Shown here: piece after piece, positions 4,256 to 23,470 of the stretch | How positions within the stretch are numbered: position 1 is the stretch's first letter | Layout of the letters: each line of letters starts with the position of its first letter | IMG/VR virus record: IMGVR_UViG_3300021431_000070 | Coordinates: 1-23,470 of that record | From: a virus | DNA: 23,470 bases | Reading direction: 5' to 3' (one strand) | Made by a program: the position numbers and the translations under genes | The notes under the pieces: model-generated | Seen by the model: only the letters and a program-made list of their open reading frames with translations | The model's database searches: none | Told to the model about the DNA's origin: nothing

Positions 4256-4555
4256 ATGGCTAATGAACAAAACTTAAAGCCAAGTGAATATAAGTTAAGC
4301 CAAGAGGAAGCCAAGAAGGGTGGTATCGCATCTGGCAAAGCCAGAAGGGCAAGAAGAACCTTGAAGGAAGAGCTCCTTCTGATGCTGTCAGATCCGGAAG
4401 TGCAGGAGAAACTTTCAGCTGCAATCATGAAGAAGGGCATGGATGGAGACATCCGGGCATTTGAAGTGATAAGGGACACCATAGGCGAAAAACCTAAGGA
4501 TGTGTTCGACATAAACTCGAATGAGATAAACATAAGGATCACTGACGATGATTAA
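4256..4555 (+). CDS. terS: Terminase small subunit
   Basis: Immediately upstream of and overlapping terL. N-terminal basic motif KKGGIASGKARRARR is typical of small terminases in Firmicutes phages. AGGTGA SD before the ATG at 4256. Confidence 0.7.
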   Translation: MANEQNLKPSEYKLSQEEAKKGGIASGKARRARRTLKEELLLMLSDPEVQEKLSAAIMKKGMDGDIRAFEVIRDTIGEKPKDVFDINSNEINIRITDDD

Positions 4556-5774
4556 CCTGAGTTTATCAAGTAAACTATTTGCGCCTAAGTTTAGACCTTA
4601 TCTTACAGACTATTCACACAGATGGGAAATGTATATGGGCTCTGCCGGTTCCGGCAAGAGCTTTTTTATTACCCAGAAGTTACTGGTCCGGGCGTTAATG
4701 CACCCCTCCGCCCGGATCGCTGTCTGTAGGCGCTATGGCACAACCCTGAGGAACTCGTGTTTTGCACTCTTTAAGGATATCCTCAAGAGCTGGAAGATTA
4801 AACAATACTGCAATGTCAGAGAGACAGATATGCGAATCACTCTGCCGAGTGGTTCAGAGTTTATCTTCATTGGTTTGGATGATGAAGAGAAGCTCCTCTC
4901 CATTGCAACTATGGATGCCATATTTGTGGAAGAGGCTTATGAGGTTCCTAAGGAGATCATAGACCAGATTAACCTCAGACTTAGAGGCGGACATGAGCAG
5001 CAGATTATCCTGGCATGGAACCCGATCAGCCGGAACTCCTACCTCTATGAGCTGTGGAGTGATCCTCCGGCTGGATCCATTTGCATCCATTCCACTTACA
5101 AGGACAACCCATTCCTGGACGATGTCTATATTGCTTCACTGGAAGAGCTGCGGAGCCGTAACCCACAGAAGGCCCGGATCTATTGCGATGGTGAGTGGGG
5201 AGTTAATACAGATGGCCTTGTGTTCAAGAACTGGAAGGTAAAAGAGTTTGATGAAATGGAACTGGCAAAGACCTTCCGCAGAAGATGCGGTATGGACTTT
5301 GGTTATCAGGATCCATCAGCGATAGTGGACAGCCTCTATGATGAAGAGCACAAACGCATCTATGTGAGCAATGAGTTCTACAAGACCGGGCAGACATTAG
5401 ATGAACTGGCAGAGGCGATCAGGCGGATGCACATGGAGAAGAGCAAGATCCAGTGCGATGCAGCAGAGCCGAGGACAATAGACTTCTTCAAGCGCCAGTA
5501 CATCAATGCGGTTCCTTGCGTGAAGGGTCCTAACTCAGTAGAGGCGAGGATAATGTTCCTCCAGAACCATGAGATCATAGTGCATCCCAGATGTGCCAAT
5601 GTGATTATGGAGCTGGAGAACTTTAGCTATGTTAAGGACCGCAAGACCGGGGAATATACAGACAACACAACACATGAGTATAGCCACAGCCTTGATGCTT
5701 TGGGCTATGCATATTCAGATATATACACAAGAAGCAAACTAAGGACCTTTGACAAAGGAGTATTGGGATTATGA
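4548..5774 (+). CDS. terL: Terminase large subunit (PBSX/Terminase_3-like)
   Basis: Walker A GSAGSGKS near the N-terminus. 408 aa. A C-terminal nuclease-like region with conserved acidic residues. Position between terS and the portal. Confidence 0.9.
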   Translation: MINLSLSSKLFAPKFRPYLTDYSHRWEMYMGSAGSGKSFFITQKLLVRALMHPSARIAVCRRYGTTLRNSCFALFKDILKSWKIKQYCNVRETDMRITLPSGSEFIFIGLDDEEKLLSIATMDAIFVEEAYEVPKEIIDQINLRLRGGHEQQIILAWNPISRNSYLYELWSDPPAGSICIHSTYKDNPFLDDVYIASLEELRSRNPQKARIYCDGEWGVNTDGLVFKNWKVKEFDEMELAKTFRRRCGMDFGYQDPSAIVDSLYDEEHKRIYVSNEFYKTGQTLDELAEAIRRMHMEKSKIQCDAAEPRTIDFFKRQYINAVPCVKGPNSVEARIMFLQNHEIIVHPRCANVIMELENFSYVKDRKTGEYTDNTTHEYSHSLDALGYAYSDIYTRSKLRTFDKGVLGL

Positions 5775-7102
5775 TCCAGTTTTATTTGCGTAAAGATGAA
5801 CCTATCACAACACTGCAGTTGGGCGATATTGTCAGCTCATTCTTAACAAACTGCATGCCAGCCATGAAAAAGAGATATAACTACTACATTGGACAGCAGA
5901 AGATCCTGCAGAAGGTAAGCGAGGATCCTAACCGCCCTTGCAATAACATTGTGTGTAACTTTGTTAAGAACATTGTAAACACCTATGAAGGCTATGCGGT
6001 TGGTGTTCCGGTTACATATGCCTCAGATGATGAAGGCTTTGAACATCTGGAGGATATACTTAAGTATAACGATGTAGCCGATGAAGATGCAGAGCTCTTC
6101 CGGAATGGCCTGATCTATGGCAGAGCTGCAGAGATCTGTTACCTGGATGAAGATAAGAATGAGCGCTTCAAAGTACTCGACAGCATGGGGACCATCCCGG
6201 TATATGATGATACCTTGGATGGTAACCTGATCTATGCGATCCGGCTGTGGCAGGAGAACATTGGGGCATCTCTTAACGAGACATACATGGCAGAGGTCTA
6301 TGATGACCGCTATGTAACCAGATACAAAAGCGCTGAGGGCTTTCAGTCCTTCCAGTTTGTGTCTCAGGAACTGCATGGATTCCTTCAGGTGCCTATCACA
6401 TTCTTCTCCCTGAATACAGAAGAGGAAGGCATTGCAGATACCATCTTCTCCCTTCAGGATGCATATAACTCCCTGATCAGCGACAGCATTGATGATTGGG
6501 ATGCCTTCTGTGATGCTTACTTAGTTCTTAAGGGAGCAGTAGCAGATGGCGAGGATCTGGAGAACATGAAGGCATACAGAACCCTCATGTTAGATGCGGA
6601 TGCCTCTGCTGAATACCTGGTTAAGAACACCTCCTCCACAGAGATCGAGCACCTCATGGATGCGGTAGAGGAGAAAATCAGAGAAATGAGTGCCTGCCCT
6701 AACTTTGCCAGCGAGAACTTTGGCACAAGTTCCGGCATAGCAATCAGATACAGATGCATGGCCCTGGAGAATAACACTGCCTCCATTCTAAATAACTTTA
6801 AGAAGGCCCTGCAGAGGCGCATAGAACTCTTAGCTGAAACACTCATGGACTCAGAAGCGCTCTGGAGGGATGTCAGCATTACCTTTACCAGAAATCTGCC
6901 GATTAACACCAGCGACATTGCAAGTGAGATCAATCAGCTCCGGGGCCTTGTTTCTGACAGAACACTTCTTGCACAGCTTCCGTTCATCACGGATGTGGAA
7001 GAAGAGATGGAAGAGATCAAGAGGCAGAAGCTGGAGAACTTGGAGGTTTATACATTTGCTTCCCCTGCAGAGGAGGTAGAGGATGGCATTGAAGAGGAAT
7101 AA
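5771..7102 (+). CDS. Portal protein (SPP1 gp6-like)
   Basis: 443 aa directly after terL with ATGA overlap. NIVCNFVKNIVNTYEGYAVG-type N-terminal region and an acidic C-terminus typical of SPP1-family portals. Confidence 0.85.
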   Translation: MIQFYLRKDEPITTLQLGDIVSSFLTNCMPAMKKRYNYYIGQQKILQKVSEDPNRPCNNIVCNFVKNIVNTYEGYAVGVPVTYASDDEGFEHLEDILKYNDVADEDAELFRNGLIYGRAAEICYLDEDKNERFKVLDSMGTIPVYDDTLDGNLIYAIRLWQENIGASLNETYMAEVYDDRYVTRYKSAEGFQSFQFVSQELHGFLQVPITFFSLNTEEEGIADTIFSLQDAYNSLISDSIDDWDAFCDAYLVLKGAVADGEDLENMKAYRTLMLDADASAEYLVKNTSSTEIEHLMDAVEEKIREMSACPNFASENFGTSSGIAIRYRCMALENNTASILNNFKKALQRRIELLAETLMDSEALWRDVSITFTRNLPINTSDIASEINQLRGLVSDRTLLAQLPFITDVEEEMEEIKRQKLENLEVYTFASPAEEVEDGIEEE

Positions 7103-8003: not shown

Positions 8004-8570
8004 ATGGAAGAAAACAAAGCTCTTGAAACTCAGGAATTAGAAGAGGGTCAGGACACCAAGACTTACTCGCAGGCAGAGGTTGATGCATTGCTTCAGGCAG
8101 AGACTGACCGAAGAGTAACATCTGCTCTTAAAAAGGCAGAGGAAAAGAACAAGGCCAAAGTGAAAGAGGCTGAGAAACTCGCAGCAATGAACTCCCAGCA
8201 GAAGTATGAATACGAACTGGAGCAGAGGGAGAAAGCCATTGTTGAGAAAGAGAGAGCCCTTGCACTGGCAGAGAACAAAAATGAAGCAGCTAAAATCTTA
8301 GAAGAGAAGGGCTTAAGCCTTCAGCTCGTTGACTTTGTAGTGGCTGAGGATGCCGAGACGATGAGTGCTAACATCAAGTTACTTGATAAGGCATTTAAGT
8401 CATCTGTTAAGGCAGAGGTAGAGAAGAGACTGGGAACCAACATTCCTAAGAAGAACCTTCCTCCGGATGAAGCCATCAACAGAGAACAGTTCCGCAAGAT
8501 GTCACTTGCCGAGCAGGCAGAGCTGTATAGGACTAACCCTGAACTCTACAATCAACTTACGAAAGGATAA
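8004..8570 (+). CDS. Capsid scaffolding protein (DUF4355-like)
   Basis: Highly charged coiled-coil protein. The motif YSQAEVDALLQAETDRRVTSALKKAEEK is typical of phage scaffold proteins. Directly upstream of the capsid gene. Confidence 0.8.
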   Translation: MEENKALETQELEEGQDTKTYSQAEVDALLQAETDRRVTSALKKAEEKNKAKVKEAEKLAAMNSQQKYEYELEQREKAIVEKERALALAENKNEAAKILEEKGLSLQLVDFVVAEDAETMSANIKLLDKAFKSSVKAEVEKRLGTNIPKKNLPPDEAINREQFRKMSLAEQAELYRTNPELYNQLTKG

Positions 8571-10779: not shown

Positions 10780-11187
10780 ATGGCAGGATATATCACAAAG
10801 GGCATGAAGCTCTCCTACAGCTCTGACGGAAGCACCTACACTGACCTTGTAGGCCTTCAGGAGTTCCCGGATATGGGCGGAAACAAGGACTCTGTTGAAG
10901 TCACCACTTTCGATGATGCTGCACATGTATATCGCAACGGCATCGAGAACTATGGCGACAGCATCTCATTCACATTTCTCCATGACGCAACGCAGTTCAC
11001 AACGATGGCTGCATGGACCGGAGAAATGTTCTGGAAGCTGTCCATCACAGATGGTGAAAATGATGCAATTGACACAACTGCTACATGGAAGGGTGAGCCT
11101 TCTGTACAGTTCAATGGCAAAGGCATCAATGAGGCTCTGACAGATACTCTTAACATCACACCAACCACAGCTATCACCTGGGCGTGA
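10780..11187 (+). CDS. Major tail protein
   Basis: 135 aa. LVGLQEFPDMGGNKDSVEVTTFDD is typical of phi13/TP901-1-type major tail proteins. Followed by the chaperone pair and tape measure. Confidence 0.8.
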   Translation: MAGYITKGMKLSYSSDGSTYTDLVGLQEFPDMGGNKDSVEVTTFDDAAHVYRNGIENYGDSISFTFLHDATQFTTMAAWTGEMFWKLSITDGENDAIDTTATWKGEPSVQFNGKGINEALTDTLNITPTTAITWA

Positions 11188-11264: not shown

Positions 11265-11609
11265 ATGTATTACGAATTTACTGTAAATGACAGAACATAC
11301 AAATTGAAACTGAGAACCCGAGATATTGTGGATGTAGAGAAGAAGCTGGGCAAAACTCTGCTGATGTTATTTGGAGAAAAATACAACCAGATTCCATCTT
11401 TAGAGGTGTGTGCGCTCCTGATCCATGCAAGCATGCAGAAGTATGAGCATGGCATCCGCTATGAGAATGTTCTGGACATCTTAGATGAATACCTTGAAGA
11501 GCACAGCTATCCTGAGCTGATGAATGTGCTTATTGGTATCTATGAGGCTTCCGGATTAATTCCTAAATCTGATGAAGAGAAAGAACTGGAAGCAGAAGCA
11601 AAAAACTAA
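11265..11609 (+). CDS. Tail assembly chaperone (G-like, zero-frame product)
   Basis: AAGGAGAAAG SD before the ATG at 11265 (track ORF 11184 starts too early). Acidic C-terminus. Ends in the slippery heptamer. Confidence 0.75.
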   Translation: MYYEFTVNDRTYKLKLRTRDIVDVEKKLGKTLLMLFGEKYNQIPSLEVCALLIHASMQKYEHGIRYENVLDILDEYLEEHSYPELMNVLIGIYEASGLIPKSDEEKELEAEAKN

Positions 11610-12019
11610 CCGGAGCAGAGGAGAATGACCCCTCTGCTCTTTTAACTGGTTATATCTTCACTCTCCGCAACTGGTGCCTGATTGCCGGGCTGATGGAGGA
11701 GGACTTTTGGGAGCTTGATTTTGGAGAGGCTAAGCGTTACATGCTGGCTGCCAACATCCGCCAGAGGGACTCAGCCAAGATGCAGGCAATCAATTCCTAC
11801 AAACATGCTCAGTTAATGATATATGCCATCGCAAGAGGCTTAGGTGAAAAGGTAGAGTTCCCTGAGCTTCATGCTCTATATCCGGAACTGTTTGGGGAGA
11901 AGGACAAAGAGGATGCGGAGATTCAAAGGCAGAATGCAATAGCAGAAAAATCAATTAACAACTTCATGGCATTTGCAAGCAATTGGAATGCCAGATTTGA
12001 GGAAGATTCAAATGAATGA
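11265..12019 (+). CDS. Tail assembly chaperone, -1 frameshift extended form (GT-like, about 251 aa)
   Basis: The -1 frame is open from 11576 to 12019, overlapping the end of the G ORF. Track ORF 11693..12019 is the distal part of this frame and lacks its own SD. Confidence 0.7.
11600..11639 (+). promoter_or_regulatory. -1 programmed ribosomal frameshift signal: slippery A_AAA_AAC plus downstream hairpin
   Basis: Zero-frame codons GCA AAA AAC TAA. The heptamer spans 11600-11606, followed by a 6-nt spacer. The stem is GAGCAGAGG (11613-11621) / CCTCTGCTC (11631-11639) with a 9-nt loop, then TTTT. Confidence 0.75.
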
Positions 12020-14039
12020 AGGCTTATATGTAACAATAGAAGCGGATGACAGCAAATACCAGGCAGCGATGAACCGGGTGCAGTCAGCCACCAAACAGAC
12101 CGCCTCACAGATCGAGATGGCTATGGAGGCTGTGCAGATCGCACTCGGTCCGGAAATGGTTCAGGCTGCAGAATCCGCAGGATATTCTTTGGAGAAACTT
12201 GGCGAGGTACTCCTTAAGATTAAGTCAAAGGGCTTATCTCTTGATGACTCCCTTGATGCTCTTAAGCAGGCTTTAGGAGAATTAGGAGTACAAGCGGAGC
12301 AGGCCTCTACGAAAGTACAGTCAGCCTCCACTAAATCAAGCGGAGGCTTCAGCAGGATAGGCATGGGGGCAAAGGTGTTCCTGGCAAATATGGCAGCGAT
12401 GGCAGTGCAACAGTTTGCACAAATGGCACAGCAGGCACTCGGCAATGTAGTTAGCTGGGCGAATCAGACCGGCAACAGTTTTGCTTCCTGCTTTGCGGAT
12501 CTAAGCGCATCAGCCAACCAGATGAAGAACCAGCTTGGCGCAGCATTTGCATCCCTGCTTCAGACGTTATCGCCTGTTATCATGCAGATTATCAGTTATG
12601 TCATTGTATTAGCTGATGCACTATCTCAGGTATTCGCTGCGCTTGGTGGTAGATCTACTTACTTAAGAGCCAAGAAAAACTTTGGCGGAGTAGGAGCTGC
12701 AGTCGGTGGAGTAGGAGCTGCAGCCGCAGGAGCTAATAAAGAACTCAAGAAAACTCTTCTTGCATTTGATGAACTTAACCAGATGCAGGATAACTCTTCC
12801 TCCGGAGGCGGAGGTGGAGGAGGCGGTGGCGGTGGTGCCGGTGGTGGCATTGGCGATCTGTTTGAAGAAGCACCACTTGCTACAGAGGGCCTGCTTGGCA
12901 TGTTCAATAAACTTGCCTCTGTTGTTGGTCCTATTTTTAAAGAAGTAGGGAAGTTTATTGATGATAACCTTCTTTATCCAATATCAAAGGGCGTACCTGG
13001 TGCAATGACCGCCTTAATGGGTATTTTTGAGCATGATAAAGAAAAATTTATTAGTGGCTTGGATGAGATGCAGGAAGGCATTGCAAATACCGAATGGCTC
13101 AAAAAGGTATCTCAGGCCATTGCAAATGTTTTCAAATTCCTTATGTCTATTCCTCTTAAGATCAAGAAAGTAATCTTACAAGCTGGTCTTGATATTGCGG
13201 AAGGGCTCCGCCCCGTGCTTGAGTTTTTTGGCATAGATGTAGATGGCTTTGTGTCAAACCTGCAGACAGCCATTGATAAGACTGATGAAGGCATTGAGAA
13301 GAACGAGAAATACTGGGACACATGGAACCAGTGGTATGAGGGCTCAATAACCACAGAAGAGATGATTAAAGCCCAGGACAGACTCAAGGGCGCTGTTGGG
13401 CAAAACACTAGCGCACTTAGGCAATATATTGACATGTACCCGGAACTTTCTGCAGCAGGAGAAACAGCAAGCACTATTGTTAGAAAAGCATTAGGAAAAA
13501 CCAAAGAAGGTGCAGACACTGTTAAGGGCGGAATTGATAGCGCAGCCGGATCCATTAGAAATCTTGCAAGCTCTGCCCCTAACTTCAATGGCATTAACAA
13601 TGGCCTTAAAGGTATTGGAAGCCAGGCGGATAGCGTAAGCGGTAAAGTGTGGGCCCTTAAGAACGCTCTCAATAATCTCTCTGGAACTACAGCGACAGCC
13701 ACAATCCAAGCAGTTACAAGCGTAATCAATGGTTTAACCAGACGATACGCAGAAGGCGGTCATCCGGAAGTAGGTCAGCTCTTTATCGCAAGAGAGGCAG
13801 GCCCTGAGCTTGTAGGTACAATGGGCGGAACTCCTACTGTTGCTAACAATGCTGACATCATCGCTGGTATTGAGGCTGGTGTCTACAATGCATTCATGAG
13901 AGCAGAAGGCGGTGCCGGTGGTGGAAGTACTACCACAGAGGTCAATGTATACATGGATAATGAAGTAGTAGCAAGAGCTGCACTTGCAGGGCAGAGCTCA
14001 CTGAACAGAAGATACAATGTATCTGCCTATGCGCATTAA
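12012..14039 (+). CDS. Tape measure protein (675 aa)
   Basis: Largest ORF directly after the chaperone pair. Ala/Gln/Gly-rich helical composition. The ATG at 12012 overlaps the GT stop (ATGAATGA). An 11-Gly tract lies at 12804-12836. Confidence 0.85.
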   Translation: MNEGLYVTIEADDSKYQAAMNRVQSATKQTASQIEMAMEAVQIALGPEMVQAAESAGYSLEKLGEVLLKIKSKGLSLDDSLDALKQALGELGVQAEQASTKVQSASTKSSGGFSRIGMGAKVFLANMAAMAVQQFAQMAQQALGNVVSWANQTGNSFASCFADLSASANQMKNQLGAAFASLLQTLSPVIMQIISYVIVLADALSQVFAALGGRSTYLRAKKNFGGVGAAVGGVGAAAAGANKELKKTLLAFDELNQMQDNSSSGGGGGGGGGGGAGGGIGDLFEEAPLATEGLLGMFNKLASVVGPIFKEVGKFIDDNLLYPISKGVPGAMTALMGIFEHDKEKFISGLDEMQEGIANTEWLKKVSQAIANVFKFLMSIPLKIKKVILQAGLDIAEGLRPVLEFFGIDVDGFVSNLQTAIDKTDEGIEKNEKYWDTWNQWYEGSITTEEMIKAQDRLKGAVGQNTSALRQYIDMYPELSAAGETASTIVRKALGKTKEGADTVKGGIDSAAGSIRNLASSAPNFNGINNGLKGIGSQADSVSGKVWALKNALNNLSGTTATATIQAVTSVINGLTRRYAEGGHPEVGQLFIAREAGPELVGTMGGTPTVANNADIIAGIEAGVYNAFMRAEGGAGGGSTTTEVNVYMDNEVVARAALAGQSSLNRRYNVSAYAH

Positions 14040-14423: not shown

Positions 14424-16409
14424 ATGATTTCCACATCACAAGATTGGAAAGATTATACAGCGGAATCCAATGTTTTCCAGATTAAGGCAGTGCTCACACC
14501 AGTGGTAGGCGCTGCTCTTAATTTGACCGGAGATGATTTTATGGGAGGGTCTGTAAGGTTTACAGATGCCTCCTCCTCTGGGCAGAGTTTCAACATTGGT
14601 TCTGTAATATCTAACAGCTTCAAATGCACACTGAATAATCAGGATGGCAAGTTTGATGGCTTCAGATTCCGGGGCGCAACCATTGCGGTCCAGTTTGGAG
14701 TCATCTATGAGGATGAATCAGCGGAATGGATTGACCGTGGCATTTATACAGTTGAGATGCCATCGACACTTGGCAAAACCATTCAGCTTGTTGCCTATGA
14801 CTTCATGGATAAGATGAACCGGGCATACATCGGCAAGGATGGAAATGGTGATATTGTTTTTCCTATCTATTCTCAGGCACTTGCGCAGGCGCTCTGTGAT
14901 TATTGCGGAGTCTCCTATGATGAGGACTTTTGGAGCATCAGCTCAAACCTTGAAATAGATGGATTTGAGTATAACGAAAGCACCACATGTAGAGAAGTAC
15001 TCTGCTGGATCTGCCAGATTAACTGCGGATTCGCTCGCATGAAGAATGATGGCAAAATGAAAGTGCAGTGGTACTCATCTGGAAATGCTGAGGTTCTGAG
15101 TGATGCACTGGATGGCGGAATCATGAATCCGTGGGGTTCAGATGAGACTGCTGATGGTGGAATCATGGATCCATGGACTGTGGTTCCTGATATAGATGGC
15201 GGTTATGCTCTGGATTATTCTGTGAGCAAAGTATCTGCAATCTCTGTAGGATCAGAGGATGTAGAGATAACCGGTGTCAGGGCATATGTTCCAAACACAG
15301 TTGATGCTTTTAACTTCTCTACAGCAGGAGCACCAGGATATATTCTGGAGATTAAAGACAATGCACTTGTTAATGATGAAAATAAGGAAGTAGTAGCAAA
15401 TGCCATCTGGCAGACCTTAAAGGGCATCAAACTCAGACCTTATAATGCAACTATCTATGGAGATCCGGCTTATGAGGCAGGCGATCTGATTGCAATCTCT
15501 GACTATTTAGGCAGAGTTTTTGTTTCCTATGTCACTAACATTACTTTTAATCTGAATGCCTTGGAGACAATCAGCTGCGGAGCTGAGACTCCGGCAGACA
15601 TGGAGAACTCTTACTCTAACCCAAATACATCTGTAATGGCTGGTGCTGTCGTTAATGCATATGATTACATCCAAGCAAAGAAGATCTCAGCGGACTATAT
15701 CTCTGCCGGAACAATCGAGGCAACTGTAGTTGCAAAGGACTTCAAACTTGAGGGCGGTTCAATCTCAATCGAAACAAATGATGAAAATGCCGATTGGATT
15801 AACCTTAACTTAAATAGTGGCACTGGAAGATATACAAGTAACACCTCTCCAACTGTTATGGGAATTGCTGCGGAGTACGATTATTATGCGGACTTTATAG
15901 GCAACAGAAATGTAATGGCTGGCCTTGAGGTAGGCAGATGGGATGGACAGACACAAACCCAAGTTTTAACCGCAGATGCAATGGGCAATGTCTACATCAA
16001 TGGAAACGGAACTGCAAAGTTTAGTGGGTCTGTCACAGCAACCTCGTTTGTTAACTCTTCACGCATTGACTTGAAAGAGAATATTAAAAAGGTTGATTCT
16101 GTTTTAAACAAGATCAAAGATGCGGACATCCTCTCTTTTAACTTCATTGATGATGCAAAAGAGCGCATAGGTCTTGCGATCGGTGGCAAGTACAATGTGC
16201 CGGAGGAAGTAGTTGCTAAAGATGAGGATGGAGAAGATCAAGGTGTAGACCTTTACACAATGGTTTCAATGGCATGGAAGGCTATCCAGGAACAGCAAGA
16301 AATCATAGAGCAGTTAGAAACAAGGGTGGAAGTGTTAGAAAAGAAACTGAATCCTTTTGGAAAGATAACAGACATCATAAAAGGAGATAATGATGGCAAT
16401 ACAAATTAG
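14424..16409 (+). CDS. Tail-associated (Tal / prophage tail endopeptidase-like) protein with C-terminal S74-type intramolecular chaperone domain
   Basis: 661 aa in the Tal position. The C-terminal SSRIDLKENIKKV ... GLAIGGKYNVPEEVV ... VDLYTMVSMAWKAIQEQQEIIEQLE (nt 16056-16406) matches the auto-cleaving Peptidase_S74 chaperone pattern. Confidence 0.7.
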   Translation: MISTSQDWKDYTAESNVFQIKAVLTPVVGAALNLTGDDFMGGSVRFTDASSSGQSFNIGSVISNSFKCTLNNQDGKFDGFRFRGATIAVQFGVIYEDESAEWIDRGIYTVEMPSTLGKTIQLVAYDFMDKMNRAYIGKDGNGDIVFPIYSQALAQALCDYCGVSYDEDFWSISSNLEIDGFEYNESTTCREVLCWICQINCGFARMKNDGKMKVQWYSSGNAEVLSDALDGGIMNPWGSDETADGGIMDPWTVVPDIDGGYALDYSVSKVSAISVGSEDVEITGVRAYVPNTVDAFNFSTAGAPGYILEIKDNALVNDENKEVVANAIWQTLKGIKLRPYNATIYGDPAYEAGDLIAISDYLGRVFVSYVTNITFNLNALETISCGAETPADMENSYSNPNTSVMAGAVVNAYDYIQAKKISADYISAGTIEATVVAKDFKLEGGSISIETNDENADWINLNLNSGTGRYTSNTSPTVMGIAAEYDYYADFIGNRNVMAGLEVGRWDGQTQTQVLTADAMGNVYINGNGTAKFSGSVTATSFVNSSRIDLKENIKKVDSVLNKIKDADILSFNFIDDAKERIGLAIGGKYNVPEEVVAKDEDGEDQGVDLYTMVSMAWKAIQEQQEIIEQLETRVEVLEKKLNPFGKITDIIKGDNDGNTN

Positions 16410-16872
16410 ACGAGGTACAAATGCGAATTGGGAATCCAATTACGGAAATATTGTAAGCGGAGAGCCAGCGATCACAACAGACAGTGAGCGGTTTGTAGTA
16501 GGCACATCAGTAGGGGCATATGCAGAGTTCAGCAATATCAATGTAGTGGCAGAACCATACAACTTTGCGGAGTCTTATATCGTTGGACAACTATGTAACT
16601 ATGGTGGGCAGACATATAAATGCCTTGCCCCAACAAGCGGAACATGGGATTCAACAAAGTGGGGAGCGGTTACATTGTCAAATGGCATTTTATCGGCAGA
16701 GGAATATTTGGAACTTGCAAGGCTGATGGCATCGGCATATAGCAATTCAGCAACATACTTCCAAGGACAGTTTGTCACATATGGTGGCAATGTCTACGAA
16801 GCGAAGCAAAACATAACCTCTGCGGAATCATGGAACAGTAGTCACTGGAATAAGATAGGAAGTGCATCATGA
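16390..16872 (+). CDS. Tail fibre protein (Mtd_N/HylP-like N-terminus; two CBM5/12-like aromatic repeats)
   Basis: The N-terminal IQIRRGTNANWESNYGNIVSGEPAITTDS is typical of fibre N-domains. Repeats: YIVGQLCNYGGQTYKCLAPTSGTWDSTKW and YFQGQFVTYGGNVYEAKQNITSAESWNSSHW. Confidence 0.65.
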   Translation: MMAIQIRRGTNANWESNYGNIVSGEPAITTDSERFVVGTSVGAYAEFSNINVVAEPYNFAESYIVGQLCNYGGQTYKCLAPTSGTWDSTKWGAVTLSNGILSAEEYLELARLMASAYSNSATYFQGQFVTYGGNVYEAKQNITSAESWNSSHWNKIGSAS

Positions 16873-17273
16873 ATATAGCGAATTTATTTAAGAACGTATT
16901 ATTAGCAAGCCACCCTGTTGGGAGCATTTATATTACAACAGACGGCTCATTTAACCCTCACGAAAAATGGGGGGGGTCATGGGAACTACTAAAAGATAAA
17001 TTTCTTGTAGGTGCTGGAAGTAACTACACATTGGGAGCAAGTGGTGGTGAAGCTACACACACATTGACAGTAGCAGAGTTGCCGCCTCATAGTCATCCTG
17101 TCAACATATTTACAGGAAGCGGTTCGATCAATGGTGGTATTTCAACCTATGCCAATGCTTCAAGAGGTGGCTCACAGTATTCTGCTTTTGGCGACACAGC
17201 CGAACAGCAAGGTAAAGCCCACAACAACTTGCCCCCATACACAGCAGTAAATATGTGGTTGAGAACCGCATAG
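16869..17273 (+). CDS. Tail-collar-domain fibre/baseplate protein (cassette ORF A)
   Basis: PVGSIYIT ... GGEATHTLTVAELPPHSHP ... HNNLPPYTAVNMW is the Phage Tail Collar pattern. ATGA overlap with the fibre gene. Contains an in-frame G8 tract. Confidence 0.8.
   Translation: MNIANLFKNVLLASHPVGSIYITTDGSFNPHEKWGGSWELLKDKFLVGAGSNYTLGASGGEATHTLTVAELPPHSHPVNIFTGSGSINGGISTYANASRGGSQYSAFGDTAEQQGKAHNNLPPYTAVNMWLRTA
16969..16976 (+). repeat. G8 homopolymer inside ORF A (codons TGG GGG GGG)
   Basis: Counted directly. A +1 or -1 G change leads to a stop within 7-9 codons. Confidence 0.95.
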
Positions 17274-17277
17274 CATA

Positions 17278-17300
17278 GCATCCTCTTTCCGTGAGGATGC
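17278..17300 (+). other. 8-bp hairpin just after the ORF A stop
   Basis: GCATCCTC / tttccgt / GAGGATGC. No U-tract. Its 5' arm can alternatively pair with the ORF B SD (CCTCTTTCC 17282-17290 with GGAAAGGGG 17301-17309). Confidence 0.5.
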
Positions 17301-17314
17301 GGAAAGGGGAATAA

Positions 17315-17647
17315 GTGAACATCAAAAATGTTTTGAAGAATATTGCAAAAATTCTTCCACAAAAACTAACAACAGACGACATCAAAATTGACACGGCAAA
17401 CGCTACAAATGTCGTTGTTCCAGCAGGTGGAACAACGTGGAGTTCGGTAGATGTGCCGAGCAATCGCAAAATGCTTGCTTGTGTTGGATTCTATTGGACA
17501 GGCACGAATGGAACAAATTTAACTCCATACTGCTTTCGTCAAGACCTACCAAATCATATGCAGTGTGCTTTGAGGAATTGGTCGAATTCACAAGCGACAG
17601 TGACTATTTATTTCTCCTACATCTATATAGATGTTGTGGGGGGGTAA
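17315..17647 (+). CDS. Cassette ORF B: small putative receptor-binding/tip protein with shared N-terminal motif (GTG start)
   Basis: The GTG start is supported by the conserved N-terminus MNIKNVLKNI, as in ORFs A, C and D, and by a GGAAAGGGGA SD. Ends ...DVVGG-TAA, encoded by GTG GGG GGG TAA. Confidence 0.6.
   Translation: MNIKNVLKNIAKILPQKLTTDDIKIDTANATNVVVPAGGTTWSSVDVPSNRKMLACVGFYWTGTNGTNLTPYCFRQDLPNHMQCALRNWSNSQATVTIYFSYIYIDVVGG
17638..17644 (+). repeat. G7 homopolymer at the end of ORF B, abutting TAA
   Basis: Counted directly (17638-17644), followed by TAA at 17645-17647. Confidence 0.95.
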
Positions 17648-17668
17648 CTAAACTCCTAGCCTATCTGT

Positions 17669-17697
17669 CATCACTCCTTAACAGAAAGGCGGTGATG
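17669..17697 (+). promoter_or_regulatory. Hairpin sequestering the SD of ORF C
   Basis: CATCACTCCTT (17669-17679) pairs with AAGGCGGTGATG (17686-17697), with one bulge, one G-U pair and a 6-nt loop. The 3' arm is the SD region of the ATG at 17700. Confidence 0.5.
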
Positions 17698-17699
17698 GT

Positions 17700-18155
17700 A
17701 TGAACTTGAAGAACCTTTTTAAGAATATTCTTAACAACACCAAAAAAGTAGCAGTAGAAAAGGCATGGGAAAGCACCTCGTATTCAACGTATAGCGGAAC
17801 GGCATCGTTTTCGATTGAATCATATAGATGCTACAAAGCTGGCGACTTGCTGTTCATGTTTTGCAAAGGCACTACAACCTCTCAAATGACAAATGCAATG
17901 ACAATGCCACTTGTAAAGATACCGATTACTGTAAGACAAATGCTTGTTGGGGCTGCGGTTGTAGGTGGTACGAACTATCCGCTTGTCAACACAGTTACAA
18001 GTAGCGATAGTCAGTGGATGGCACAAGGCATTGCGTCAACAGTACCATCCAATACAGCAATTTATTTGTGGGCTGTCTATTTGATTGGAGAATTGGGGGG
18101 GGTAATACTTAACCAACTTCACGCACTCCTTGGAAGGAGGTGCGTGGCATGGTAA
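17700..18155 (+). CDS. Cassette ORF C: small putative receptor-binding/tip protein with shared N-terminal motif (extended form as sequenced)
   Basis: N-terminus MNLKNLFKNIL. With the G8 tract as sequenced, the frame continues 17 codons past GELGG and stops at 18153-18155, overlapping the ORF D ATG. Confidence 0.6.
   Translation: MNLKNLFKNILNNTKKVAVEKAWESTSYSTYSGTASFSIESYRCYKAGDLLFMFCKGTTTSQMTNAMTMPLVKIPITVRQMLVGAAVVGGTNYPLVNTVTSSDSQWMAQGIASTVPSNTAIYLWAVYLIGELGGVILNQLHALLGRRCVAW
18095..18102 (+). repeat. G8 homopolymer near the end of ORF C
   Basis: Counted directly. With G7 the ORF would end TTG GGG GGG TAA (…GELGG-stop), exactly like ORF B. Confidence 0.95.
18120..18146 (+). promoter_or_regulatory. 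Hairpin sequestering the SD of ORF D
   Basis: CACGCACTCC (18120-18129) pairs with GGAGGTGCGTG (18136-18146), with one bulged G and loop TTGGAA. The 3' arm contains the GGAGGTG SD of the ATG at 18149. Confidence 0.5.
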
Positions 18156-18541
18156 CAAACCTTATGAAGAACATTCTCTACAAACTTGGGCTGATTGCCG
18201 ATTACATTGTGGAACGTGGCACAAGCGGAATATGGACTTATCGCAAGTTGGCGAGTGGTGATGCTGAATGCTGGGGAACAACCTCAAAAGTTGCAAACAT
18301 TAATATAGCGCAAGGAAATATTTATACAAGTCAAGAACTAACAGAAGCCTTTCCTTCCACTCTCTTTACAGATATTAAAGCAGTTGAAGTTTCGAAAGGC
18401 TCTTATGATTCTAATACAGGAATCTTTGGTTCTGCATGGAATTTAGATGCACACGTTGTTAGAGCAACAGTTTTCAGAGGAAACTCTTCCACCAACAACA
18501 CAGTCAACTTATCTTTTCATTTGTTAGGGAAATGGAAATAG
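18149..18541 (+). CDS. Cassette ORF D: gp53-C-terminal-like small fibre tip protein with shared N-terminal motif
   Basis: MVTNLMKNILYKL, then IVERGTSGIWTYRKLASGDAECWG, a pattern I recall from small fibre-tip domains of Firmicutes prophages. AAGGAGGTG SD before the ATG at 18149 (track GTG 18140 is less likely). Confidence 0.6.
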   Translation: MVTNLMKNILYKLGLIADYIVERGTSGIWTYRKLASGDAECWGTTSKVANINIAQGNIYTSQELTEAFPSTLFTDIKAVEVSKGSYDSNTGIFGSAWNLDAHVVRATVFRGNSSTNNTVNLSFHLLGKWK

Positions 18542-18550
18542 GAGAAACCA

Positions 18551-18766
18551 ATGAAAGACAAAATAACAAAACTCATTGATGTGAAGAGCATCATGACTTT
18601 GGCACTTGTGGGGGCATTCATCTATGGCTTTGTCACCAAGATGATAACTCCATCGCAGTTCTTTAACATCTTCACTGTGATCGTGAGTTTCTACTTTGGG
18701 ACACAGTATCAGAAGAATGCTGAAACACAAGAGGCATCTATCAAAGCTTTTAAAACAGAGGAATAG
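18551..18766 (+). CDS. Holin (two predicted transmembrane helices)
   Basis: 71 aa. Hydrophobic segments IMTLALVGAFIYGFV and FFNIFTVIVSFYFG, with a charged C-terminus. Lies upstream of the endolysin. Confidence 0.7.
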   Translation: MKDKITKLIDVKSIMTLALVGAFIYGFVTKMITPSQFFNIFTVIVSFYFGTQYQKNAETQEASIKAFKTEE

Positions 18767-20601: not shown

Positions 20602-21630
20602 CTATATTGCTAAATCTTTATATAATTCCTCTGTTTTCTCATTCTCCTCCAGGATGTGACTGTAAGTCTGCAAGAATATAAGTTCAGAATGCCCCATAAG
20701 CGCTGCGGCCTTCTTTGTACTTATAATTCCCCTCTGGCAAAGATAATAAAGTTCACTGGCTCTGTTGTGCCGGAAATGATAGAGTGTTATATCAGGTATT
20801 CCAATGGCATTCAAAATCCGCTTTTTGAAACATCTGTATGCAGATTTTGTCATGAGCGTTCCATCCTTTTTGTGGAATAAAAGCAGATTACTTCCATTAT
20901 CATCTATATACTTACGTATATACTTAAGTAGTTGTTCCGGAATAGGCAGGTCCCTAACAACTTCTGTTTTGGTTCCCTTTAAATTAGGGTTATTCCCATC
21001 AAACTCTACTGCTTTGGTTACATGGAGTACTTTCCGCTTTAGATCCAGATCAGAGCGAGTGAGAGCCAATACTTCCCCTGGTCTTAATCCAAATGCCAAT
21101 AGAATGTTGACAAACATCCGCTCCATAGGAGGAAGGTCTGCTTCCCTGATCTTTTCCTTTTCCTTATCTGTAAAAGCTCTTTTTTCTTCCGGCTTACGTT
21201 TCTTAAGCTCCAACTTTTTAGCCGGGTTAGAAGTTATGATTCCATCTTCTATGGCTGTGTCAAAAATCTGATTGAGTGTAAGGCGCAAGATCTCCGCCAT
21301 TCTTCTTCCGGCATATTGGTTTACAATTTGCTGGCAGTCAGATTTTGTTATTTTCCTAAGTTCAAGCGCATCAATAACATCAAACTTCTTCAGGGCAGAA
21401 GAATACATTTCTCTTGTCTTTGCGCTCTTATTGGCCTTGTAAATAGTAAACCACTTTTTACTATAAGCGCCAAAAGATATATCTGATGGGTTTTTTGTTT
21501 TTGATGCTTGTACAAAATACTCCCTGATATTGCGATCCAGTTCTGCCTGACTGGATCCATAGAAGTGCTTCCTGATCCGGGAGCCATCAGATTTAAAACC
21601 CACTTGAAGGTATTTATGGTATTTTTTCAT
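20602..21630 (-). CDS. int: Tyrosine site-specific integrase
   Basis: C-terminal catalytic pattern: LRPGEVLAL (Arg), HFRHNRASE (H-x-x-R), GHSELIFLQTYSH (His...Tyr). N-terminal SAM-like domain. Adjacent to the tRNA-derived attP. Confidence 0.9.
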   Translation of the reverse strand: MKKYHKYLQVGFKSDGSRIRKHFYGSSQAELDRNIREYFVQASKTKNPSDISFGAYSKKWFTIYKANKSAKTREMYSSALKKFDVIDALELRKITKSDCQQIVNQYAGRRMAEILRLTLNQIFDTAIEDGIITSNPAKKLELKKRKPEEKRAFTDKEKEKIREADLPPMERMFVNILLAFGLRPGEVLALTRSDLDLKRKVLHVTKAVEFDGNNPNLKGTKTEVVRDLPIPEQLLKYIRKYIDDNGSNLLLFHKKDGTLMTKSAYRCFKKRILNAIGIPDITLYHFRHNRASELYYLCQRGIISTKKAAALMGHSELIFLQTYSHILEENEKTEELYKDLAI

Positions 21631-21648: not shown

Positions 21649-22278
21649 TTATCTTACTGCGCTCTGGAAGGCAATGGCCTTGCCTATGATCCGGATCTGG
21701 TTGAGTTCCTCGCCCATATAAACCATAGGAGCATAAGCAGGGTTTTCTGCATTTAATGTCATGGTTTGATGCTTCTTGTCATAGTAGACTCGTTTTAGTG
21801 TTGCTTCATCCCTGATAATGACTGCAGCTATCTCTCCATTTTCCACATCCGGCTGTTGATGGATAAAAACATAATCGCCATCTAATATCCTGGCATTTAT
21901 CATGCTGTCACCCTTTGCAATCAGAACCAGATCGGCTGCATCCGGAGCATCCTCAACTGTAAGATATTCCGCTTTTTGATTTGTAACTATTGGCTCTCCA
22001 CATGCGATTTCACCTAATACTGGGATTTGGCGGAATTTAACCTTCTGGAAACCATAATTTATAAGAGTTTGCGGAGGTTCTTCCCATCCCATAATAACCG
22101 CAGGGGAAATATCCAAAGCATCAGCAAGGGCTTTTATTTTGTCTCTTTTCATGTTGGCAATATCGCCAGACTCCCATCTGGAGATGGTTCCCTCACTAAC
22201 ACCAACTGCATTAGCCAACTGCTTCATTGTTAAGCCTAACTCATTGCGCCTATTGTATATAATTTCCTTAATGTTCAT
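21649..22278 (-). CDS. CI/LexA-like repressor: N-terminal XRE-type HTH plus C-terminal S24 autopeptidase domain
   Basis: LGLTMKQLANAVGVSEGTISRWESG forms the HTH. AKGDSM (Ser) and ATLKRV (Lys) form the dyad. GGAGGG SD 7 nt before the ATG at 22278 (the track start at 22293 lacks an SD). Confidence 0.9.
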   Translation of the reverse strand: MNIKEIIYNRRNELGLTMKQLANAVGVSEGTISRWESGDIANMKRDKIKALADALDISPAVIMGWEEPPQTLINYGFQKVKFRQIPVLGEIACGEPIVTNQKAEYLTVEDAPDAADLVLIAKGDSMINARILDGDYVFIHQQPDVENGEIAAVIIRDEATLKRVYYDKKHQTMTLNAENPAYAPMVYMGEELNQIRIIGKAIAFQSAVR

Positions 22279-22308
22279 AATATATCCCTCCATCTTGTGT
22301 GGACCTTA

Positions 22309-23162: not shown

Positions 23163-23346
23163 GCGCTGGCAGACCATTACAGAGCTGAAGAGGGATGGAT
23201 GGAGTGAGAGCCAGCTCCGCAGGATCGCCAGATCTGATGAAGCTCACAAGTACTGCCGGAGGACCAGTGAGAGAGGGAAATACCAATTTGATACCTATGC
23301 CTTAAACAGCAAGGCACCATATTTAGACAAGATAGGAGGAAACTGA
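23155..23346 (+). CDS. Small basic protein, possible HTH DNA-binding protein (excisionase-like?)
   Basis: GGAGG 7 nt before the ATG at 23155. WQTITELKRDGWSESQLRRIA ... GKYQFD loosely resembles excisionase/HTH_17 proteins. Its stop overlaps the ATG of the annealase gene across the circular junction. Confidence 0.35.
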   Translation: MAKRWQTITELKRDGWSESQLRRIARSDEAHKYCRRTSERGKYQFDTYALNSKAPYLDKIGGN

Positions 23347-23470
23347 TGGCAACATTTGAACAATTAGCAAAGGCCAATGCCCAGATCAGGACCACTGACA
23401 TCAAGGGCAAGGATTATGCAGAGGTCAACCAGAGGATTAAAGCCTTCCGCATGGTTTACCCGGATGGCGG
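23344..23470. repeat. Terminal direct repeat (copy 2), identical to 1-127
   Basis: Read directly. Confidence 0.95.

Follow-up and report, generated by a model that had tools for sequence, protein, structure and literature searches.

A putative poly-G-gated translational-coupling connector between successive tail-tip genes of a temperate siphovirus

Introduction

Initiation regions buried in RNA structure can tie the translation of one gene to that of its upstream neighbor, as from the coat to the replicase gene of phage MS2 and within ribosomal-protein and atp operons. In these classical cases the downstream Shine-Dalgarno (SD) sequence and AUG are paired and are opened by upstream ribosomes, ATGA-type overlaps join stop to start, and the coupling is constitutive. 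The locus described here shares this layout, with upstream ribosomes predicted to do the opening, but has in addition an upstream homopolymer that can move the reading frame into or out of the hairpin. It lies in a viral DNA of 23,470 nt (IMG/VR record IMGVR_UViG_3300021431_000070, positions 1 to 23,470; this whole stretch is called the window below) and comprises four small open reading frames (ORFs), A to D, that appear to encode tail-tip domains. We propose that the junctions from B to C and from C to D represent a conserved, poly-G-gated translational-coupling connector between successive tail-tip genes, a reading to which we assign a probability of roughly 0.55. Its parts differ in strength: that the module is conserved and selected, not a coincidence of two paralogous junctions, is well supported; the coupling design itself is likely, as judged from sequence; and an adaptive, reversible tract switch is conceivable but doubtful.

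Homopolymeric tracts are known from other phages. Hypermutable poly-G tracts occur in receptor-binding-protein genes of Campylobacter phages (Fletchervirus) (Sorensen et al. 2021, Cell Rep 35:109214, as cited in PMC10579305), and contingency loci have been described in T2/T4, with a claim of wide occurrence among T-even and other phages (PMC12633550). As in those phages, the homopolymer tracts of the present locus are concentrated in host-recognition genes, and a change in their length alters the products. The Campylobacter phage tracts reportedly lie inside an ORF and turn that protein ON or OFF, with switching said to have been shown experimentally; here, in contrast, the tract occupies the last two codons and would pick between two termination sites, with consequences for the next gene.

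Simple-sequence repeats at the 3′ ends of genes alter protein C termini or fuse ORFs, an effect described at the protein level. Such repeats in Neisseria, Campylobacter, and Helicobacter form part of the general theme of PMC5320596. Here, too, the tract sits near the 3′ end, so that a frameshift alters the C-terminal tail and does not abolish the protein; the alternative tail, however, is the coding image of the SD hairpin of the next gene and terminates on the start codon of that gene. Mechanistically, the closest parallel is pil1 of Streptococcus gallolyticus, in which a GCAGA pentanucleotide repeat in a leader peptide combines phase variation with attenuation: the repeat number sets the reach of upstream translation, and a longer reach destabilizes a stem-loop and raises downstream expression (Danne et al. 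2014, PMC3894217). In pil1, which belongs to a bacterial pilus operon, the stem-loop acts as a transcription terminator, whereas the present locus, in a phage, combines a homopolymer at the end of a structural gene with an SD/AUG hairpin and a stop-start overlap. An earlier, sequence-only reading of the window had stated that homopolymer-controlled translational coupling was not known from any phage fiber locus. Our literature search found no paper joining a homopolymer tract with translational coupling, and the exact combination thus lacks a precedent among the papers searched, but every ingredient is known and pil1 comes close. New are the tract in the last two codons, the choice between two termination sites, an SD/AUG hairpin in place of a terminator, and a portable connector of tip cassettes.

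Results

Tip gene B (17315–17647, plus strand; GTG start, 110 aa) is in the short state: it ends ...VVGG-TAA, with a G7 tract (17638–17644, plus strand; gtG GGG GGG) followed directly by its stop codon (TAA, 17645–17647). Tip gene C (17700–18155, plus strand) is in the extended state: after a G8 tract near its 3′ end (18095–18102, plus strand; ttG GGG GGG Gta), the adjoining TAA (18103–18105) is out of frame, and C runs on for 17 codons (18102–18152) across a hairpin to a TAA (18153–18155) that overlaps the ATG, at 18149, of tip gene D (18149–18541, plus strand). The equivalent frame is latent in B (17644–17703, plus strand), open for 20 codons and reached only with one extra G or a −1 slip; with the extra G, B would read GGVTKLLAYLSSLLNRKAVMV and end at a TGA (17701–17703) overlapping the ATG of C at 17700. 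The third frame ends two to three codons on at both junctions (GGT AAC TAA and GGT AAT ACT TAA). The three tract phases give the tails VGG*, VGGV...(17–20 aa)*, and VGGGN(T)*, so that a change in length alters the product. The sequence-only reading had set out this arrangement of tracts, stops, and alternative frames, and every element of it is present.

The same reading had placed, downstream of each tract, a hairpin with the next SD in its 3′ arm and an anti-SD in its 5′ arm. Both fold favorably and have counterparts in relatives. The B>C hairpin (17664–17703, plus strand) pairs a 5′ arm (17664–17679) containing the anti-SD CACTCCTT with a 3′ arm (17686–17703) containing the SD and start codon of C, at a folding free energy (ΔG) of −13.3 kcal/mol (z −2.6). 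The C>D structure (18112–18153, plus strand; ΔG −20.4 to −20.7 kcal/mol, z −3.7, an equally good fold arising in 0 of 200 shuffles) consists of an inner stem (18119–18130/18135–18147), in which the anti-SD pairs with the SD AAGGAGGTG, and an outer stem (18112–18115/18150–18153), in which the linker pairs with the start-codon region. Aligned by their distance from the ATG, the two hairpins have the same geometry (4 bp, a 1-nt bulge, and 8–10 bp), and six pairs are changed on both sides yet still paired. When the 30 gene starts of the window are ordered by local folding energy, the three tip-gene junctions take ranks 1, 2, and 4, rank 3 being not a true start but the −1 frameshift extension of the tail chaperone, and SD-pairing probability among these starts is highest at the same three junctions (0.81–0.91).

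The third of these junctions, A>B, has a hairpin (17281–17310, plus strand; −19.9 kcal/mol) that sequesters the B SD GGAAAGGGG but has no tract, and the A stop codon (TAG, 17271–17273) lies upstream of it. This hairpin is conserved in two related loci, L011 (1565–1630) and L016 (6715–6785), with energies of −19.9 to −22.8 kcal/mol overall. If continued past TAG 17271 and an internal TGA, the A frame would end GTGA on the B start, the same phase as at the poly-G junctions. Upstream of A, the stop of the preceding Mtd_N protein overlaps the A start (ATGA) without a hairpin, the local fold being weak.

Related loci (L numbers) were collected by exact look-up of the holin, profile scans with Mtd_N, a degenerate DNA pattern, and protein searches with B and C, which together gave about 15 distinct junction contexts from metagenomic phages. 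Their usual layout is an Mtd_N protein, one to three tip genes ending in a G tract, a tract-free terminal tip gene, and the holin. The junctions fall into seven variants (B-type, C-type, L001-type, L033, L015-1, L023, and L012), in which 55, 46, 46, 43, 43, or 40 nt separate the end of the tract from the next start. All of these spacings are 1 mod 3, so that the extension frame invariably ends ATGA, ATGnTAA, or GTGTTAA. The stop/start overlap is indeed found in that frame in 7/7 variants (ATGA, ATGgTAA, GTGTTAA, or ATGTTAA). No stop interrupts the extension frame in any of the seven, as against 9 and 12 stops in the two remaining frames; multiplied together, the shuffle probabilities for this give 0.01, for variants that are not fully independent. 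The conservation of the extension frame, which had been claimed from the two window junctions, thus extends to every variant, open and in phase with the next start.

A significant SD-sequestering hairpin is present in 8/9 of the relatives' junction sequences (z −2.1 to −6.0). Energies in the window and relatives run from −13 to −22 kcal/mol, L023 being weak at −7.7 kcal/mol. The arms vary but stay complementary (CACGCAC/GTGCGTG, CATCAC/GTGATG, GCTAUGCUCCCAA/UUGGGGGUGUUAGC, and GCAAAG/GUUUUGC), and the evidence for structure consists of per-sequence folding z-scores and direct comparison of arms. A MAFFT alignment of the junctions was structurally inconsistent and was set aside. A covariance model built from four C-type junctions was likewise discarded as too narrow, scoring the other variants at 9–14 bits, among false matches. 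The outer stem also varies in sequence, ACCA/UGGU in the window and UAACU/AGUUA in L012, and is present in L001, L002, L013, L033, and L011 as well. In C-type junctions the linker 5–12 nt past the post-tract TAA (CUUAAUU) pairs with the opening codons of the downstream gene (AUGAUUAAG).

The tracts themselves are maintained as homopolymers. GGG is the rarest Gly codon in the window (10%), and GGG-GGG is used at only 3 of 50 Gly-Gly pairs, exactly the G7, G8, and G8 tracts that lie within 1.2 kb of one another in the tip genes. Among the about 15 diverged contexts there is no synonymous interruption of the tract. TA[AG] directly adjoins the tract on its 3′ side in every junction, even when out of frame, which means that Val is always coded GTA, and a second stop follows soon after the tract in the third frame. 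The third window tract, G8 in A (16969–16976, plus strand; tGG GGG GGG, Trp-Gly-Gly), is in frame, and the homopolymer is kept in relatives. It forms part of a WGGSW motif and is in frame in every relative (L011 1226–1233, L012 6295–6302, L016 6425–6431); in L016 it is a G7 through a G-to-T substitution (Leu-Gly-Gly), not an indel. Lying early in its gene, the A tract would be of the classical ON/OFF kind.

Comparison of the window with L005, L006, L013, L015, L016, L055, and L056 puts the left mosaic breakpoint at the G tract and the right one at the start codon. Window B and its L005 counterpart are about 50% identical upstream, 94.5% identical in the 55-nt junction, and 54% identical downstream; for C and L005_160 the identity is 98% in the upstream part and 63% within the junction. 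With these breaks falling exactly at tract and start codon, the junction behaves as an independent mosaic unit: 40–55 nt exchanged independently of the flanking genes, which are unrelated. L006 is a natural recombinant in which B (100% identical) is joined straight to a D-type gene. A distant relative, L012 (6108–7452 of a 55-kb bacterial contig from a Lachnospiraceae metagenome-assembled genome [MAG], JAZRYR010000027.1), follows the same logic in a different sequence: it has an A-type gene with an in-frame G8, followed by an extended tip gene ending G8+TAG, a 43-nt junction, and an ATGA overlap; it hints at a clostridial host range of the module.

The degenerate pattern scan of metagenomes returned mostly chance matches and stem-loops like those of circular Rep-encoding single-stranded (ss) DNA (CRESS) viruses, with only L023, L033, and L046 as new genuine loci. 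Five pattern matches (L020, L021, L029, L048, and L049) are unrelated: each is a G6-8 - TAATACTAAAC - C5-7 stem-loop between AGTTCCAATAGTTCCA repeats, resembling the stem-loops at replication origins of small circular ssDNA viruses, and stands outside this finding.

Naturally occurring sequences show each of the three phases at one and the same site. Within the B family, gatgttgt-G7-taactaaactcc and a 110-aa product are found in the window, L004, L006, and L060, whereas the L055 homologue (84% identical) combines these flanks with G8 and encodes a 129-aa protein (P0007) ending GGVTKLLTYLSSLFNRRVVMA. In the C family, the tract is G8 in the window, L004, L010, L058, and L005, and G9 in L056 (58% identical), which is in the third frame and ends ...EVGGGN. 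Across the 15 contexts, 10 are extended, 4 short (B, L013, L046, and L023), and 1 in the third frame (L056). The same tract states recur in ENA, Logan, and NCBI assemblies, and the lengths are therefore not sequencing artifacts.

The extension peptides of B and C had been noted to resemble each other over their last residues. The likeness is real, but it follows largely from shared nucleotides of the anti-SD (CTCCTT = Leu-Leu) and the SD, whose coding image in the peptides is Arg-Arg or Arg-Lys (AGGAGG/AGAAAGG). The tails also resemble the N-terminal motif of the tip genes, x-I/N-K-N-L-F-K-N-L (window C 18102–18152, the window B +1 frame 17644–17700, L015 from 6494, and L023); against shuffled tails the likeness reaches z 5.2 in L023 (VTQLLKNLFREV) and 3.3 in L015-1, and z 0.8–2.4 in the others. 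The tails could be relics of a cassette 5′ end or functional mimics. An AlphaFold model of C, made with three sequences, has a mean predicted local distance difference test (pLDDT) score of 57 and gives a weak hint of an N-terminal helix, a β core, and a helical extension.

The four ORFs and the Mtd_N/CBM_5_12 tail-fiber protein (16390–16872, plus strand; Pfam) are located between a 661-aa tail protein (14424–16409) and a holin-like gene (18551–18766). A to D have in common just a short N-terminal motif, M-N/I-I/L-K-N-L-F-K-N-I/L. Gene A (16869–17273, plus strand) has a Gp10_C-type tip domain (Pfam, E 2.7e-19) and matches the extreme C terminus of the long tail-fiber family phrog_5717 (PHROG; positions 990–1150 of 1150), as D does that of phrog_2712 (positions 584–699 of 700); these matches to the far ends of long fibers identify the small ORFs as stand-alone fiber-tip domains. 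Searches of GenBank phages by megablast with the locus and by tblastn with the Mtd_N protein gave no match, and D found distant matches only, to tail-fiber ends of Acutalibacteraceae and Eggerthella phages. A scan of genome collections returned, besides the distant Lachnospiraceae MAG locus (L012), a 13-kb "Bacteroidales" MAG contig, which we rejected as a host clue since the bin is unreliable and conflicts with the strong SDs.

The window phage is a small temperate siphovirus. An exact 127-nt repeat (bases 1–127 = 23344–23470) points to a circular assembly whose unit measures 23,343 bp. The lengths of related contigs, 23,248 and 23,394 bp, suggest that these are complete genomes of that size. 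Its other recognizable genes are the large terminase (4548–5774), SPP1-type portal (5771–7102), scaffold (8004–8570), tail tube (10780–11187), and tape measure (11973–14039), and, for lysogeny, an integrase (20602–21630, minus strand) and an S24/HTH repressor (21649–22293, minus strand). The tail-assembly chaperone has a canonical −1 frameshift site, A AAA AAC (11600–11606), directly before TAA 11607–11609; its −1 frame is open (11610–12019) into the ORF at 11693–12019, upstream of the tape-measure gene.

Discussion

In the mechanism that we propose, a stable hairpin would bury the SD and start codon of the downstream tip gene, and one frame, open across the hairpin, would end at a stop overlapping the downstream start (ATGA, ATGnTAA, or GTGTTAA). 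Ribosomes finishing the upstream gene in this frame would melt the hairpin and reinitiate, a case of termination-reinitiation coupling. The tract, which encodes the C-terminal Gly-Gly of the upstream protein with TA[AG] directly next, would choose among three phases: in one, the upstream ORF ends at once, 16–19 nt before the hairpin, and the genes would be uncoupled; in the next, the ORF crosses the hairpin, coupling the genes and adding a tail of 17–20 aa to the protein; in the third, a stop 2–6 codons later would uncouple them again. By this scheme the window would have A>B fixed in an uncoupled state, the B>C gate closed (G7), and the C>D gate open (G8). A ribosome at the post-tract TAA should reach only about 12 nt on, and with the inner stem beginning at +16 to +19 the hairpin would stay closed in the short phase; such a halted ribosome would open the outer stem, not the inner SD stem. 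Following the reported work of de Smit and van Duin on the coat gene of MS2, independent initiation would be strongly reduced by hairpins of −13 to −22 kcal/mol. Coupling would govern downstream expression, more probably by changing a ratio than as a strict ON/OFF device, and slippage in the tract may be frequent and reversible enough for bet-hedging on virion tips.

Several observations weigh against this proposal, above all against its switching part. The A>B hairpin, at −19.9 kcal/mol, can never be read through, so that either these hairpins are not absolute blocks or B is hardly made. The seven junction variants are homologous, which limits the independence of the statistics on open frame and phase. 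Tract length is constant in every independent assembly of a given gene: identical or near-identical copies of B (5 contigs from NCBI, Logan, and ENA) and of C (3–4 contigs) show no variation, all five loci of the L002 type have G8, L013 and L046 share G7, and G8 is found in both L015-2 and L016 despite differing junctions. None of 28 hypothetical tract variants of seven genes occurs among 15 billion proteins, and length differences are seen only between homologues 84% and 58% identical. Tracts of G7–G9 stand at the lower edge of known hypermutable lengths. Finally, the closed-gate window genotype (G7 at the B gate) was assembled as a circle and recurs in several samples; the closed state is therefore probably viable and unlikely to be a dead end. 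A strict ON/OFF control of the downstream gene, as implied by the sequence-only reading, is not supported, given that the A>B hairpin is equally strong without possible read-through and the closed-gate genotype is probably viable. Its heritable, reversible switch fares better in one respect, since G7, G8, and G9 phases do occur in homologues, and worse in another, high-frequency reversibility being unsupported, with constant length per gene and 0 of 28 variants. Minority alleles are invisible in consensus assemblies, which consequently neither show nor exclude high-frequency switching.

A rival explanation, which we consider rather improbable, is that the junction is a coupling module with a mutational weak spot and no switch. 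The extended state would then be the design, the tract would serve as the conserved Gly-Gly end and, at the left junction edge, as microhomology for the swapping of tip cassettes, and the short and third-frame versions (B here, L013/L046, L023, and L056) would be sporadic frameshifts, tolerated since the hairpins merely throttle translation. The predominance of the extended state (10/15 contexts), the constant tract length inside each gene lineage, the breakpoints exactly at tract and start codon, and an A>B junction that works without read-through are all in keeping with this. A mere liability, however, should be broken by synonymous GGN codons, and none of the about 15 diverged contexts has done so even though GGG is the rarest Gly codon; nor would a weak spot account for a stop conserved directly after the tract even when out of frame, for a second stop kept shortly after in the third frame, or for the persistence of the short state in several independent samples.

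Recoding on the G run, by RNA polymerase slippage or ribosomal frameshifting, would yield short and extended products from one genotype and would thereby fix the proportions of coupled and uncoupled ribosomes and of tip protein with and without the tail. We regard this as improbable to a greater degree, although the short-state G GGG GGG is formally an X XXY YYZ heptamer at which a −1 slip enters exactly the extension frame, and the phage has a canonical −1 site elsewhere, in the chaperone gene. The spacing expected of a programmed −1 site, a heptamer with a structure 5–9 nt downstream, fits C-type junctions only, whose outer stem starts 5 nt after the TAA and 8 nt after the tract; at the short-state B junction of the window the structure lies 22 nt past the tract, too far for a −1 stimulator. 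Most genes, moreover, are extended as they stand and require no recoding, a G9 tract would call for a +1 shift and hence there is no uniform mechanism, and transcriptional slippage is documented mainly on A/T runs.

Hairpins serving RNA processing, RNA stability, or DNA recombination, with poly-G lengths as assembly noise and the frame logic coincidental, could explain inverted repeats at cassette boundaries, but this is very improbable given an SD and start codon that are always in the 3′ arm, a conserved phase and open frame, tract lengths reproducible across independent assemblies, and the absence of a terminator-like tail or an Rfam family. No terminator-like site was found at 17281–17310, 17664–17703, or 18112–18153, where the stems run into the start codon and not into a U run, and the Rfam 15 covariance models returned a chance miRNA match only (E 0.81). 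An integron attC-like site, checked by eye, was rejected: the linker ACTTAAC fits RYYYAAC, yet it has no GTTRRRY partner.

The poly-G-gated connector that we favor may also be given a broader form, which we advance as speculative: a portable gate between the alternative tip genes of a family of small temperate siphoviruses, whose Gram-positive hosts would probably be clostridial and human-associated. Slippage by a single G would then heritably and reversibly open or close coupling to the next tip gene, with effects cascading to the following ones, so that a clonal population would hedge the tips it displays, and the same 40–55-nt gate would act as the standard connector for exchange of tip cassettes.

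Even on a minimal reading, the locus provides a conserved connector that sets the boundaries at which tail-tip cassettes recombine. If the gate operates as proposed, tract, hairpin, and overlapping stop/start would make up a compact portable part, and phage contingency loci would reach beyond Campylobacter and T-even phages to temperate phages of Gram-positive commensals. Such a gate would join inversion systems and diversity-generating retroelements as a third means by which a phage with a fixed genome diversifies its host recognition, one that acts on the expression ratios of several tip proteins and not on the ON/OFF state of one.

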